Assembly: GCF_003966335.1 (NCBI RefSeq)
Contig: NZ_CP034549.1
Span: 2,490,001-2,522,000, forward strand
Reading direction: 5' to 3'
Length of the DNA stretch: 32,000 nt
Origin: Nonlabens ponticola
GTDB lineage: Bacteria > Bacteroidota > Bacteroidia > Flavobacteriales > Flavobacteriaceae
Below the pieces are notes generated by a model, which made no database searches, had not been told where the DNA came from, and worked only from the letters and a program-made list of their open reading frames with translations. Positions 19,421 to 32,000 of the stretch are shown here, in pieces. The translations under genes and the position numbers were made by a program. Positions within the stretch are counted from its first letter, which is position 1, and each line of letters opens with the position of its first letter.

Positions 19421-19510
19421 AGGGCGTTCCCACCCAAAATTTGGGTGGTCAGGCTCTACGCTATATTCTCGCTAGAAAAAAGCGAGAGATGCCGCTGCGA
19501 TCCTTAACGC
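19421..19510. other. Structured, GC-richer intergenic element with two hairpins
   Basis: The two hairpins are CCACCCAAA/TTTGGGTGG (19430-19448) and TCTCGCT/AGCGAGA (19467-19487). There is no ORF. Confidence 0.4.
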
Positions 19511-19628
19511 ATAGAAGTTCATACATTTTAACTGGCCACCTGGATTCATTTGTCGTCACTGACACTAGCCTTATTAAGCGGTTAATAATCATATTTTGCT
19601 TTTATCTTTACTAGATAGAAACGTTATT

Positions 19629-28196: not shown

Positions 28197-28281
28197 GGAG
28201 AAGTGGCAGAGTGGTCGAATGCACTGGTCTTGAAAACCAGCGAGGGTCACACCTCCAGGGGTTCGAATCCCTTCTTCTCCG
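28197..28281 (+). tRNA. tRNA-Ser (anticodon TGA)
   Basis: I folded this manually. The acceptor stem is GGAGAAG/CTTCTCC with discriminator G, and there is a D-arm. The anticodon stem CTGGT/ACCAG carries the loop CTTGAAA. There is a long variable arm and a T-arm with GTTCGAATC. CCA is not encoded. Confidence 0.95.
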
Positions 28282-28285
28282 CATA

Positions 28286-28324
28286 AAAGCCTGGTATCTC
28301 AATGATACTGGGCTTTCTTTTTTT
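28286..28324 (+). terminator. Rho-independent terminator after the tRNA
   Basis: A 13-bp stem (AAAGCCTGGTATC/GATACTGGGCTTT, 2 G-U pairs), a 5-nt loop and a T-rich tail. Confidence 0.65.
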
Positions 28325-28502
28325 CGGTTGACAAATTAGTTGACCTATTTCTTCAAATCAGACTCCCTTTCTCGTATTTAATTCATAGCTCATAATCAGA
28401 AACTACCCTTGTCTAAGAATAAATTAGGTAGCTTTGTATTGAACTTAAAATTTAATATGTGAAGTAAAACTTCTCAAAACTTATTATAGCGTTTAGCTCT
28501 AG

Positions 28503-28610
28503 ATCCAATCGAAATCGCCAATTTTTTGATCTGACAAGCTGTTTTAAACGCGGTGCCCATGGGCGCTGCTGTTTACTCTTGTCATGGTGTTTGGCGATAC
28601 CCGATTGGAT
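28503..28610 (+). other. Extended imperfect hairpin of about 108 nt (possible structured RNA or leader, or a DNA recombination site)
   Basis: I paired this manually. The nested helices, from outermost to innermost, are: 28503-28511 with 28602-28610 (9 bp); 28514-28521 with 28591-28598 (8 bp); 28532-28538 with 28578-28584 (7 bp); 28546-28549 with 28571-28574 (4 bp); 28550-28557 with 28562-28569 (8 bp, 2 G-U pairs). The apex is the palindrome GCCCATGGGC. Confidence 0.6.
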
Positions 28611-28645
28611 AGTAATTCAGTTAGCGCCTTCTTTAATTGGACATT

Positions 28646-29635
28646 ATGATCGAGAATACTTTTAAGCTAGAATTTGACAAAGAGACAGCTACCGAAACTC
28701 AAAAAAAACTAATTAAGCGTTACTGGGATTACGACGCAGAGAATAAAGGCTTTAAAGAAAAGGTAAACTATATTTTTTCAGAAAATAACATGTCAGTACA
28801 GTCTAATCTGAAAGTAATTAATAGACACTCGACCATGAGAATTCAACATATTTGTCAGGTCTGTCTAGATGAATATTGGTTACCGGTATCCTCACGAGCT
28901 AGATTTTTGTCTGGCATCACTGCTCATCATGATATACCTAATTATTTCACCTGTCAGTCCTGTGCTGCTTTACAAAGACTAGAACAACAGCAAAGGGGAA
29001 TAGATAAGAAGATAAAGATTATTAAAACAATCCAGGAAGCTTATGATTCACAACTATACAATTATTTAACAAGCTTTGAATTTGAGGTACTGGTAAAAAC
29101 ATTAGAAGATGATTACTTTAATATTACTTTAAAATATTATGCTAACGAAGGTGTGCATGAGACATTTATTGATGCCATTGATAAGTTAAATGATTTACAG
29201 CTATTATACATCAATCCAAAATCAAAGCATAAATATTATCGAGAGATCCTATACGCAGAAGAAACAAAACAAATACTTTCAGCTATTCCAGGCGGTCATC
29301 GAGATTCCACGTTTAGAATAATAACCGAAGCTGATACACCGTCCATTCATAGTTCTGAGTTTTCAAGTGAACTTAAATTTTTTCTTCATCCAAATAAAAA
29401 TAAATCGGGATTGAGTCCTGATTTTACTACCTTGATAGAAATTAAAGAAGATATTATTTTACGTAAGGGAACAACCTTTACAGCGGGAGGCTGGATAAAG
29501 AACAACGAAGGCATTAATGTTACCATCGTACCTACAGAAAAAATCGTTAATAGGACTCGTAGCATACCATTGAGTAAAGTACCTGAATCGTTGGGAACGC
29601 TGATTAATAATTATTTGAACAACTTAAATGAATAA
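28646..29635 (+). CDS. Hypothetical protein with a 2xCxxC zinc-ribbon-like motif; island gene A
   Basis: ORF of 329 aa from the ATG at 28646, or 332 aa from the TTG at 28637. It has CQVC and CQSC pairs 30 residues apart, then a Gln/Lys-rich helical linker. I recognise no catalytic family. Confidence 0.7.
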   Translation: MIENTFKLEFDKETATETQKKLIKRYWDYDAENKGFKEKVNYIFSENNMSVQSNLKVINRHSTMRIQHICQVCLDEYWLPVSSRARFLSGITAHHDIPNYFTCQSCAALQRLEQQQRGIDKKIKIIKTIQEAYDSQLYNYLTSFEFEVLVKTLEDDYFNITLKYYANEGVHETFIDAIDKLNDLQLLYINPKSKHKYYREILYAEETKQILSAIPGGHRDSTFRIITEADTPSIHSSEFSSELKFFLHPNKNKSGLSPDFTTLIEIKEDIILRKGTTFTAGGWIKNNEGINVTIVPTEKIVNRTRSIPLSKVPESLGTLINNYLNNLNE

Positions 29636-29666
29636 TCAATATAATTTTTGACTAAATCATTTCTTT

Positions 29667-29975
29667 ATGCTGAAATCTAGTAATGTCCTCGATGAGTTGG
29701 AAAGTTTGTACTGCACCTCAATAGATATTGAATTATTTGGAGTCACCTCTTTTACAGATCTTGATGAAGTGATAGATATGGAGATCGAGACCTGGGCTGA
29801 TCTTGACAAACCAATTTCTGAAATAGAGCGTCTAGCTCAAAAAGCAATAGGCACATACATCTTGACTATGGATGATCCAGATCGCTTACAAGAGTATATC
29901 TGTCGAAAGAAAACTATAGACTTCTTGACAGAAATGAATTCAATCCTGGAAAAACTAAAAATTAGAATAAATTAA
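29667..29975 (+). CDS. Hypothetical small acidic protein (102 aa); island gene B
   Basis: The ATG lies 31 nt after gene A, on the same strand. The protein is Asp/Glu-rich and I recognise no family. Confidence 0.6.
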   Translation: MLKSSNVLDELESLYCTSIDIELFGVTSFTDLDEVIDMEIETWADLDKPISEIERLAQKAIGTYILTMDDPDRLQEYICRKKTIDFLTEMNSILEKLKIRIN

Positions 29976-30113
29976 AAATTGTGCTGAAGTGATCAAAGCG
30001 TTCTTAAGATCTTGCACGAAAGTGATGAACACACATTATAATATTTCTTAGCTTACAAGGTCATAATCATACTTCTCAAATTTTGCTCTGTCCTAGTTTC
30101 GACTAGTTCAAAA

Positions 30114-30337
30114 ACATTTTGAATACGAAAGTTAAATGAAACAGTCGTCGAACTTCAGTAATTTTACAACTCGTTTTAGATAATATTGGTTCTTGAAACG
30201 ATTAAGAGAAAATGGAATTTAAAGCGACCTCGATAAATATCGCTTTTTTACTTTCTGAAATTATCCGCATATAGCATAACGTTTGGAATTGAATCATGTA
30301 AATTATCTGTTTGATTTGACTTTCGTATTCAAAGTAT
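30114..30337. repeat. 224-bp segment bounded by 23-bp imperfect inverted repeats (MITE-like or a long-range RNA helix)
   Basis: The left arm is ACATTTTGAATACGAAAGTTAAA (30114-30136). The right arm is 30315-30337. They match at 20 of 23 positions, with a perfect 15-bp core TTTGAATACGAAAGT. Confidence 0.5.
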
Positions 30338-30420
30338 TGGGTTATTTCCGAGCATTTCTTAGCTACTTCCGATTAAATTAAAATTTGACAGTACTATTGT
30401 TAAGCTAGAGATTCAGATAT

Positions 30421-31815
30421 TTAATAAGAAACTTTACTAGGTTTTACACCCCACGGAACAGGTTGTAGTCCATGTTTCAATGTTGCGCCTTTTGTAGTGC
30501 GATTATAGTATTCGCCATGGTATTCTAGGATATTAAGTAAGGCCAATTCTATGTACCATATGCACAGTTCTAATATCTCATATTTTGTACTCATGTCAAT
30601 TTTATTCAACTTCATTCTTTTTTCGATTTGAGAATGAACTATCATATTACGAACTTCGGTTATCACATCCGGACCGTCTAATGCGCGTTTTTGTTCTGAG
30701 ACATAAGAATTCAAACATTTTAATCCAAGAGGTACCTCTGTTTCAATACCTAGGTTTTTGACGATAAGTCTAATTTTGTTTGATGCTGAAATGGAGGATG
30801 CATCTCTTCCTGATAGTAATCCTTTTTTCTCTACTATCCACCAATTATAAATTAGTTCTAAAGCAGTTTGAGCCATAATGATAGAACTTTCAGTAAAGCC
30901 AACATTGTTATTAGCATTCAAGTACCAATGTATTGCCGTGAAAAGAAAATCTTCGTCATGTGGGTCGGACGCGACTTTCTTATAGTTTTTCCACAATTGA
31001 TCTATTGAAAGGTAAATTCTACTAGGACACCAGGTTTGCGGTAAACTAAACGGTTCTATGAGATAGCTTGTGTAATCCGTCCATAAAGGCTCGTCTTTGT
31101 TCAGACCTTGCGCCATGAATCCAGAAATACGTCTACCATTTATAAAAGAAAGGAAATTGTTTACCAGCCTGAAAATGCTTTGAGATTCACTTAAATTTAG
31201 TGGCTCCTTATGGCAGGTCAATTTACCTGATGCCAATATATCAAAACCTCCCAGATTTTCTAATCCTTTTAGTTTTTTATCGTAATCATATACAGAATCG
31301 ATAATGAACTTGTAATTCTCATCCCCAAATGTTAATCTTGATTTTGATGTTCTATTCTCAATAACTCCTATTTTTTTTTGGACTGGATAACCATACAGCC
31401 GCCGTAAGTTAGGTATCGAAAAAACTATCTCATTTACTTTTACCGATGGGTCGCCAGTATATGTCTCGAAGGCAAAAACACCCTCAAATGTTATACTACC
31501 AAAATTGTCAAAATTGACTAGAGTGAGAAATGCCTTGCCTGCAAGATTATCATTAATGACCACCTCAAAGTATTCAAGTTTCCTGAAAATCTCAAAACTG
31601 AATTTATTCAGAAGCTCCGGTTTACCCAAAAATCTTACACCAACCAATGGTAGCCAGTGAAATGAAAATTTACCAAGGCAGGAAATTGAAACATTGTCTG
31701 AAACTATTTCAAATCTTCCATCATGAATAATAATACTAGCATTAGTCGTGGGAAGGGTAATGTGTTCTATAATTGTTGGGTATCTGCTATCCGGATCCGT
31801 AATATCTGAGGTCAA
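30421..31815 (-). CDS. HEPN-type (R-x4-H) domain protein with a large uncharacterised N-terminal domain, possibly ApeA-like; island gene C
   Basis: RNMIVH is encoded at 30634-30651, within a helical C-terminal region. The N-terminal region of about 230 aa is beta-rich. The TTG at 31815 is the only canonical start after the in-frame stop at 31849-31851. Confidence 0.7.
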   Translation of the reverse strand: MTSDITDPDSRYPTIIEHITLPTTNASIIIHDGRFEIVSDNVSISCLGKFSFHWLPLVGVRFLGKPELLNKFSFEIFRKLEYFEVVINDNLAGKAFLTLVNFDNFGSITFEGVFAFETYTGDPSVKVNEIVFSIPNLRRLYGYPVQKKIGVIENRTSKSRLTFGDENYKFIIDSVYDYDKKLKGLENLGGFDILASGKLTCHKEPLNLSESQSIFRLVNNFLSFINGRRISGFMAQGLNKDEPLWTDYTSYLIEPFSLPQTWCPSRIYLSIDQLWKNYKKVASDPHDEDFLFTAIHWYLNANNNVGFTESSIIMAQTALELIYNWWIVEKKGLLSGRDASSISASNKIRLIVKNLGIETEVPLGLKCLNSYVSEQKRALDGPDVITEVRNMIVHSQIEKRMKLNKIDMSTKYEILELCIWYIELALLNILEYHGEYYNRTTKGATLKHGLQPVPWGVKPSKVSY

Positions 31816-32000
31816 AATATTATTATATCTGTTTATTGAAAAATTGCATCATTTAAAAGTATCGATCTACAACTGCATACTTGTTGGGACAATGCTTTAT
31901 TTGTAATACTTTTTTATAGCAATTCTCCATCCATTCGTTTAATGCATCCTTTGCAGACAAATAAATCATCTCAGTAAATTTCTATTACCACTTCATTTTC

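Follow-up and report, generated by a model that had tools for sequence, protein, structure and literature searches.

The window analysed here is a stretch of 32,000 nucleotides (nt) of the Nonlabens ponticola chromosome (contig NZ_CP034549.1, positions 2,490,001 to 2,522,000), and all window coordinates below count from its first letter. It contains an uncharacterised gene, here called A (28646-29635, + strand), which encodes a protein of 329 amino acids (aa) with a CxxC...CxxC zinc ribbon and is preceded on the same strand by a folded element, E (28486-28630). A tRNA-Ser(UGA) gene with its own terminator (28197-28316) stands just upstream of E. On the other side, gene B (29667-29975, + strand; 102 aa, very acidic) is co-oriented with A, and gene C (30421-31815, - strand; 464 aa, ApeA-like HEPN) is convergent with both. 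Sequence comparison supports well the view that E belongs to a structured RNA family, absent from Rfam, which lies upstream of the zinc-ribbon protein family of A on mobile DNA of Bacteroidota. We put roughly even odds (about 0.5) on E being a cis-acting, bistable 5'-leader RNA that would serve as a transcription attenuator of gene A.

Folding, copies and covariation of element E

An earlier sequence-only reading of the window had drawn attention to an imperfect hairpin of 108 nt at 28503-28610 and listed five nested helices within it. All five are present, and together they make up the minimum-free-energy (MFE) fold; also confirmed were the apex palindrome GCCCATGGGC, the TAGCTTTG box at 28429-28436 and the gap of 35 nt that separates the end of the hairpin from the start codon at 28646. 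Comparison with dinucleotide-shuffled controls, a check named beforehand, gave an RNA MFE of -47.3 kcal/mol against -25.1 +/- 3.3 kcal/mol for the shuffles (n=200, z = -6.65), and none of the 200 folded as well. Folded as DNA, the same segment reaches -26.1 kcal/mol (z = -6.56); its complementary strand also folds, 5.5 kcal/mol more weakly than the sense strand. Regarding its extent, the 108-nt hairpin exists, and it proved to be the core of a larger structure of 145 nt (MFE -54.7 kcal/mol) that includes an additional outer helix, P1.

The full element is a rod with 50 base pairs (bp) in helices P1-P5, all on the + strand, and its features can be followed from the outside inwards. P1 encloses the hairpin by pairing GCGUU.AGCU (28489-28498) with AGUU.AGCGC (28619-28627); it is 93.7% paired and has an invariant G.U pair inside. 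The core hairpin, supported by both folding and covariation, is composed of P2 (9 bp), P3 (8 bp), P4 and P5. The last of these is the apical, GC-rich helix (28550-28569), which has a CAUG loop, is followed by a U-rich stretch and is terminator-like by itself. The 3' strand of P1, hereafter the tail, has two possible partners, the 5' strand of P1 and the 3' strand of P5. A T-rich spacer (28629-28645) separates E from the start codon of A, with a T-run directly after P1 and 15 nt ahead of the gene. On the 5' side, a putative leader (28437-28485), about 90% conserved in the alignment of the Nonlabens loci, connects E with the TAGCTTTG box, which by its motif is a -7 promoter box of the Bacteroidota type (consensus TAnnTTTG). 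The sequence-only reading had stated that the hairpin lacks a T-tract and had set a simple terminator aside on that ground. The statement holds weakly, as CTTCTTTAATT follows the outer helix here and T-runs occur at all five diverged copies described below; the dismissal itself was unsound, since the full element is terminator-like and the hairpin formed by its 3' half abuts the U-run.

Diverged copies of E were identified by covariance models. Model R1 was built from four Nonlabens sequences only, and model R2 was trained on the R1 hits; the window copy scores 180 and 160 bits with them, respectively. An exhaustive profile search found 63 remote homologues of A, with 21-30% aa identity and an invariant YW motif in addition to the CxxC...CxxC zinc ribbon. 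R1 finds E ahead of remote A homologues at loci L024 (E-value 1.4e-8), L022 (1.4e-5) and L019 (1.7e-3). It also finds a copy at positions 2230-2380 of L020 (L020b, 3.3e-7), 76 nt upstream of a lipoprotein-like gene (183 aa) that is not of the A family; a PLAT/LH2-like lipoprotein gene follows the latter. R2 finds a further, AT-rich copy outside its training set, L020a (1.9e-4), ahead of the A gene of L020, and this contig, which encodes an A protein, carries two copies of E 2.1 kb apart. The gene calls of three more A homologues (P0133, P0143 and P0166) were extended into E, and because their called N-termini translate the 3' half of E, the element precedes these genes too. A covariance-model search for homologous hairpins beside A homologues was among the checks that the sequence-only reading had proposed, and it has thus yielded diverged copies with compensatory changes.

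The copies share a 5' AGCGUUUAGCU motif, an invariant CGCCA/UGGCG helix, a 3' UUCAGUU...CGC motif and a T-run, and in the arms of the long hairpin the sequence varies between copies while the complementarity is kept. Each copy folded singly gives the same architecture as the window copy, and the L019 copy has a z of -6.2 against shuffled controls. Six distinct variants of E were analysed; the four Nonlabens copies are uninformative on covariation because they are nearly identical. In an alignment that was fitted by the covariance model, and so leans towards the structure, 96.2% of the cells pair and both sides change in 28 of the 50 pairs, while sliding the partners by 1-3 columns leaves 35-42% paired and 4-8 double-changed pairs, and none of 500 shuffles matches. 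By helix, all nine pairs of P2 and six of the seven of P4 covary, and six of the 12 pairs of P5 change on both sides; no change occurs in the P3 core CGCCA/UGGCG, in the AA/ACC internal loop or in one of the G.U pairs. A MAFFT alignment based on sequence only still yields P3 and the inner part of P2, with compensation in six of 11 pairs.

The small metagenomic contigs that carry E ahead of an A homologue are plasmid-like, and the A homologue has its own upstream region on them. In L019, parA and ribbon-helix-helix (RHH) genes stand directly upstream of E, and L024 has a homologous RHH gene in that place. Other A homologues belong to integrative and conjugative element (ICE) backbones (L017 4001-4978, L018 4001-4987 and L021 3001-3987), where DUF4099/DUF3945 and topoisomerase III genes precede them, separated by a short intergenic gap or none; downstream, L017 and L018 have a DUF1896 gene and a gene for a methyltransferase-helicase of about 1800 aa. 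Model R2 returned no E within 3-4 kb of the A homologues in these backbones, nor in the ICE loci, the ApeA loci or the remainder of the window. The A homologue of L021 is split in two open reading frames (ORFs) of 210 aa and 110 aa. Since the repeat search and R2 both return a single copy within the window, a repeat of the miniature inverted-repeat transposable element (MITE) or repetitive extragenic palindromic (REP) type was rejected there.

Searches for known relatives of E gave negative results. Rfam 15 (4227 models, including 6S, 6S-Flavo, counter-transcribed RNAs (ctRNAs), CopA, FinP and riboswitches) has no match on the window copy at the gathering threshold. With E-values up to 10, region 28280-28700 gave noise of at most 14 bits, and with E-values up to 1 nothing fell on E in the four loci with diverged copies. 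Exact 20-mer scans of genome, metagenome and viral contig collections returned chance matches only (checked by blastn), a weak negative because the known Nonlabens and JGI copies were not returned either, their records apparently being absent or masked. Two gapped motif scans of viral contigs gave chance matches that the covariance model rejected. The plasmids of PLSDB have no match to E by blastn or to three A homologues by tblastn, and blastn with E found no match in phage sequences.

The strand on which E folds can be read from its pairs. On the sense strand, each full-length copy has 5-6 G.U pairs at consensus positions, the partly aligned L019 copy has 2, and A.C mismatches number 0-1 per copy, a total of 24:3 over five lineages. 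Folding of the antisense strand is 5-11 kcal/mol weaker than that of the sense strand, and the best reverse-strand score with R2 is 16 bits, whereas on the forward strand the training copies score 75-160 bits and L020a, which was not used in training, 27 bits. Because a palindrome in double-stranded DNA (dsDNA), or folding of the antisense strand, predicts parity or the opposite ratio of G.U to A.C, the gene-sense strand is taken as the folded molecule.

The position of E is equally regular. It is co-oriented with the next gene at every copy and ends 14-24 nt from the start codon in seven of eight copies. The run after it reads TTTTTT in L019, L024 and L020b, TTTATTTT in L022, TTTT in L020a and CTTCTTT in the window, and both P1 and the alternative closing stem described below abut this run in the window and in the five diverged copies. 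Upstream, a -7 box occurs at a similar distance in three independent lineages: it starts 57 nt before E in N. ponticola, N. agnitus and Nonlabens sp. Hel1_33_55, while L020b has a TAAATTTG box at 60 nt and L019 a near-consensus TAACTTTA at 61 nt. From these motifs we infer that the TAGCTTTG box drives transcription through E. The invariant G.U pair, the G.U-rich alternative fold, the co-orientation, the start-codon spacing, the T-run and the -7 box all point to an RNA in the 5' leader, rather than single-stranded DNA (ssDNA), as the folded form. A structured leader or noncoding RNA of the gene A module was one of the options that the sequence-only reading had offered. It gains support from the occurrence of E with very distant homologues of A, accompanied by abundant compensatory changes, and also from the sense-strand folding and the Bacteroidota -7 box at a conserved 57-61 nt upstream. 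Two further candidates were considered and rejected. A small-peptide ORF was one: the 17-codon ORF that begins at the ATG of the window apex is not conserved in frame, and its start codon is missing in some copies. The other was a conserved pairing of the leader with the start of the coding region, which is not kept in N. agnitus.

Near-identity in Nonlabens and the neighbouring genes

Close relatives of A number only three, in N. agnitus, in Nonlabens sp. Hel1_33_55 and on a JGI metagenome contig. The 145-nt core of E is 98-99% identical in the three Nonlabens lineages (L001-L003), in contrast to 46-66% among the other copies. In the four-locus alignment a near-invariant block extends between the TAGCTTTG box (28429) and the start codon of A; the sequence upstream is unalignable, and conservation starts exactly at the box, which forms the 5' edge of the block. 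Within Nonlabens, the coding sequence of A has 61-74% nt identity and its protein 51-67% aa identity, with a synonymous divergence (dS) from 1.1 to saturation. Along the island, the divergence between the window and Hel1_33_55 is mosaic, with dS values of 2.5 (A), 3.0 (B) and 0.72 (C); C is 84% identical and E 98%. The chromosomal neighbours common to the window and N. agnitus are saturated at synonymous sites. Possible explanations of the near-identity are extreme constraint, gene conversion from further copies, or a recent spread of a promoter-leader cassette. Conservation near the level of a tRNA beside a fast-evolving gene is an evolutionary pattern worth explaining.

The three related loci differ in what surrounds A. 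In N. agnitus, A stands at the same tRNA-Ser site, B is a decayed remnant and C is absent. Hel1_33_55 has the A-B-C module within a heavy-metal resistance island, and the JGI contig is nearly identical to that locus and stops just past A. Homology to the Hel1_33_55 island runs beyond C to the end of the window (window 28646-32000 against L002 6001-9420). Searches of Pfam, PADLOC, NCBIfam and PHROG gave no match for gene A, B or C. The AlphaFold model of A has a pLDDT (predicted local distance difference test) of 85; its similarities are to a zinc ribbon and, weakly, to MarR-like folds, and comparison with PDB and BFVD gave no match with an E-value below 0.03. Gene B is conserved beside A in Hel1_33_55, where it is 68% identical, and no B homologue was found at the loci of remote A homologues.

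Gene C has YopA_M and YopA_C domains and belongs to a family with more than 340 homologues, some of which match the Apea-like HEPN model; C itself carries an RNMIVH (Rx4H) motif. By its sequence it is probably an ApeA-like defence RNase, independent of the A-B module. Homologues of C at other loci stand alone, with no A, B or E; for this reason, a tie between E and C was rejected and C is treated here as a neighbour rather than as part of the feature.

Some other structures were observed in the window. Between B and C there is an inverted repeat (30113-30144/30307-30338) of 32 nt and 88% complementarity, which was discarded as a relevant structure because it folds only slightly better than shuffled sequence (z = -2.3) and lacks conservation in Hel1_33_55. 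The perfect palindrome TTACGCTTTCGCGAAAGCGTAA (20-22 nt) occurs seven times, mostly in intergenic positions (2345, 6324, 9372, 13634, 16426, 23284 and 27071), and resembles a genomic repeat of a REP-like or terminator-like kind in N. ponticola. A match to Flavo-1 RNA (RF01705) lies at 19443-19516 on the - strand, with 44.7 bits against a gathering threshold of 42.

A candidate attenuator and competing explanations

A second fold of the 3' half is what suggests a switch. In every variant, the tail (the 8-9 nt that lead up to the U-run) finds its strongest pairing with the 3' strand of P5, at -9 to -11.7 kcal/mol in five variants and -5.0 kcal/mol in L020a, against -4 to -6 kcal/mol with the 5' strand of P1. 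The pairing sequences themselves differ by lineage (GGCGCU/AGCGCC, GCGUGG/CCACGC and GCUUGG/CCAGGC). In the window this fold spans 28561-28628 (+ strand; -25.2 kcal/mol, z = -2.98) and ends at the U-rich run: the 3' strand of P5 followed by GCUG pairs with CAGU followed by the tail AGCGCC, around an inner hairpin GGUGUU-UGGC-GAUACC. Folded alone, the 3' half forms the same hairpin in five of the six variants (z = -2.4 to -5.1), ending at the U-run; its general architecture is that of a closing stem, then GCUG paired with CAGU, then the inner hairpin GGGUNUY-UGGC-RNNACC. By contrast, five of the six 5' halves are unstructured. RNAalifold recovers the alternative fold from a plain MAFFT alignment, and 87% of its cells pair, compared with 40-48% in slid controls. 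Residues on the 3' side that are conserved yet unpaired in the rod (GGG, ACC, GCUG and CAGUU) are all paired in it. Taken together, these comparisons give moderate support to a conserved alternative fold.

A pair of folds that exclude each other and use a common strand, with a U-run next to one of them shortly before a gene, is the design of an attenuator, and it is on this basis that we propose attenuation of gene A. E would lie within a 5' untranslated leader of about 205 nt transcribed from the TAnnTTTG promoter that stands about 45 nt before the element. In the first fold, the 5' arm would pair with the 3' arm in the stable 50-bp rod; in the second, with the 5' arm unavailable, the 3' half would fold alone and abut the U-run 15-25 nt before the start codon. 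The competition would thus be between pairing of segment I (the 5' arm) with segment III (the apical 3' strand) and pairing of III with IV (the tail and U-run). By default the rod would zip from its apex and sequester the 5' strand of the terminator, and its weak, interrupted base helix would allow read-through into A. A trans-acting factor that captured the unstructured 5' arm would release the terminator fold of the 3' half and turn A off. Candidates for this factor are an antisense RNA encoded by the element, the A protein or a host factor. Regarding the first, the minus strand carries a perfect TAnnTTTG box (read as CAAAnnTA on the other strand) in the internal loop of the 5' arm, at element positions 43-61, in L019, L022, L024 and L020a (four of the six variants). 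This box could be an antisense promoter; it is absent from the window copy and from L020b. As for the A protein, its zinc ribbon, its weakly MarR-like domain and the second copy of E on a contig that encodes A make it a candidate.

Several points weigh against attenuation. The comparison draws on six distinct variants of E. The promoter and the termination are deduced from motifs only, and which of the folds is 'on' is a presumption of the model; the -7 box stands at another distance in L024, and none was found for L020a. The rod exceeds the alternative fold in stability by 25-35 kcal/mol, which makes a switching factor necessary. It is also uncertain which fold would terminate, since the base of the rod with the U-run is weakly terminator-like and the apical helix too precedes a U-rich stretch; moreover, the U-run of the window is interrupted (CUUCUUUAAUU). 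The alternative fold covaries only modestly, its pairing was judged on the very alignment that had supplied its structure, and L020a does not have it. Finally, 98-99% identity beside saturated synonymous sites is not obviously explained by an ordinary attenuator.

The same structural, strand and positional evidence also underlies the proposal of a sense-strand RNA that has no terminator switch: a protein-binding operator (for instance for autoregulation by A), a hairpin for RNase III processing or stabilisation, or a trans-acting small RNA of about 190 nt ending at the U-run. The invariant P3 core, AA/ACC internal loop and G.U pair suggest a specific recognition partner, and A has both a zinc ribbon and a weakly MarR-like helical domain. 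In addition, the second E before a non-A gene on an A-encoding contig is what a shared operator predicts, and Aca proteins bind structured motifs in 5' untranslated regions (5'-UTRs) of mobile elements (PMC13551039). Such an RNA would, however, leave unexplained why the 3' half alone has a conserved fold that ends at the U-run and the 5' half has none. Against it also stand the divergence of A to 51-67% identity while E was held at 98-99%, and the ICE-backbone homologues of A that have no E within 3-4 kb. We consider this explanation unlikely, although it stands up better than the other competitors.

A function of the sense strand as ssDNA, on a transferring or rolling-circle element, would instead make E a priming signal of the ssi/ssoA type or a relaxase or recombinase substrate. 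The context is mobile (parA and RHH genes in L019, the RHH gene in L024, ICE backbones, the heavy-metal island and the tRNA gene), and the hairpin is long, orientation-specific, conserved in structure and able to fold well as DNA. Like sso and Frpo cassettes, it is strongly conserved relative to its neighbours, and the TAGCGT at its 5' base resembles the CS-6 motif of ssoA. This motif lies outside the terminal loop, however, and reads AAGCGT in other copies. The 14-24 nt spacing, the co-orientation and the -7 box distance point to a role in expression; both folds have many G.U pairs, some invariant, which stabilise RNA and, as G.T, would do so only weakly in DNA; the vicinity has no relaxase or rolling-circle Rep gene; and L020 has two copies 2.1 kb apart. 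An ssDNA function is therefore improbable in our judgement.

Still less probable, and in fact very improbable, is a function of the double-stranded form as a palindromic operator, a cruciform, or an attC-like or other recombination site, with the near-identity in Nonlabens produced by cassette exchange. The sequence-only reading had named a cruciform or ssDNA recombination site at a cassette boundary as an option, and a sharp island of 98-99% identity with unrelated DNA upstream and a gene of 51-67% identity downstream, an imperfect palindrome of attC-like length and the recurrence of E between genes in L020 would suit it. A symmetric site predicts equal numbers of G.T-type and A.C-type differences between its arms, though, and the ratio observed is 24:3; this strand asymmetry and the fixed short distance to the start codon disfavour the option, as do the lack of attC-type core sites and of a recombinase. 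In particular, the 3' ends GTTAGCG (here) and GTTCCAC (other copies) misfit the GTTRRRY of attC R', the bottom strand is the one that folds in attC sites, none of the copies has an integrase or recombinase gene beside it, and the conserved, asymmetric alternative fold would be left unexplained. The weakest explanation, which we find hardly credible, is an Frpo-like ssDNA promoter, in which a hairpin on the transferred template strand would mimic a duplex promoter and A would be expressed on entry into a recipient: long imperfect hairpins do lie upstream of leading-region genes, in several copies per island and conserved across plasmids (PMC11541004), and A homologues occupy a plausible ICE establishment region by the giant methyltransferase-helicase gene, but Frpo uses the template strand while the pairing of E is selected on the sense strand (24:3, with mismatches there on the antisense), no sense-side TAnnTTTG or -33 element lies within the stems of E, and the duplex-type -7 box sits outside the hairpin, at -57.

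Attenuation by E may also be part of a wider scheme, which we regard as rather improbable. E and an A-family zinc-ribbon protein (or an antisense RNA) would form an RNA-protein regulatory pair, a bistable switch with its 5' arm captured by the protein or the antisense RNA, and would regulate genes for establishment or anti-defence on ICEs and plasmids of Bacteroidota, with the promoter-leader-E unit of about 225 nt being held at about 99% identity in Nonlabens by gene conversion or independent spread while the genes behind it diversify. Independently of this scheme, E is well supported as a structured RNA family, a new one of a known leader type, with covariation, strand specificity and a plausible two-state design. 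To our knowledge, few regulatory RNAs of Bacteroidota mobile elements have been described so far. E offers a handle on the function of a zinc-ribbon protein family that is also present in ICE backbones. Bacteroidota have non-canonical promoters and do not use initiation led by Shine-Dalgarno sequences, and the proposed mechanism, if true, would be an attenuator in such a phylum. E could possibly be used as a genetic part for Flavobacteria and Bacteroides.

Comparison with known systems

Among the systems of mobile DNA that E resembles, attC sites are imperfect palindromes of 60-140 nt that lie between genes on mobile DNA and are conserved in structure more than in sequence, as is E. They have R''/R' core sites (RYYYAAC / GTTRRRY) and fold on the bottom strand, unlike E, which has no such cores, folds on the top strand and keeps a fixed distance upstream of a start codon; no intI or integrase gene is present at any E locus. 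Origins of the ssoA type have CS-6 (TAGCGT) in a terminal loop together with RSB, on rolling-circle plasmids with a Rep gene. Membership of E in this group was rejected, as its TAGCGT-like motif is at the 5' base and is AAGCGT in other copies, and the neighbouring genes are parA and RHH, not Rep.

The leaders of the rep genes of pT181, pIP501 and pAMbeta1 are attenuators driven by counter-transcripts. Upstream of a gene on a mobile element, they have the same order of parts as E: a pre-emptor strand, a shared strand, and the 3' strand of a terminator with its U-run. The antisense -7 box inside the 5' arm of E, seen in four of the six variants and not in the window copy, adds to the likeness with these leaders. 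In contrast, the antisense RNA predicted for E would miss the 5' strand of P5, no ctRNA model of Rfam matches, and there is no evidence that A is a Rep protein.

The ssDNA promoters of plasmid leading regions (Frpo/ssi) fold on the template strand and have promoter hexamers in the stem (Masai & Arai 1997; Samuel et al. 2024, PMC11541004). They share with E a long imperfect hairpin upstream of genes of conjugative elements, possibly in multiple copies and more conserved than the genes behind it; E differs in its sense-strand fold and in stems that contain no promoter motif. Aca regulators bind structured RNA motifs that lie within 5'-UTRs of acr-aca operons (Feussner et al., NAR 2026, PMC13551039). 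These motifs, like E, are family-specific, are sometimes common to adjacent operons and were found by comparative genomics. E is much larger (145 nt, 50 bp), and A has no detectable helix-turn-helix or RHH Aca domain.

Long-stem leaders that toggle a terminator do exist on mobile elements, as in cATT, the zipper-type attenuator of conjugation operons of the pLS20 family, which lies next to conAn1 (Gonzalez-Alvarez et al., NAR 2026, PMC13401043). Compared by description only, it appears to be the closest described analogue of E. The two have no sequence relation, and cATT belongs to Firmicutes, E to Bacteroidota. E precedes an uncharacterised zinc-ribbon protein gene instead of conAn1. In E, the 5' half of the terminator would be sequestered at the apex of the rod (P5) and not at its base, the whole 3' arm would refold into the terminator fold, and the base of the rod also precedes a U-run. 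Despite these differences, each is part of a long 5' leader that belongs to the first gene of a unit on a mobile element, and each has a long imperfect stem, extended by flanking complementarity, that competes (in E, by prediction) with a terminator shortly before that gene. By default the long stem would form in E as it does in cATT, and an RNA-binding protein or a counter-transcript has been proposed as the trigger.

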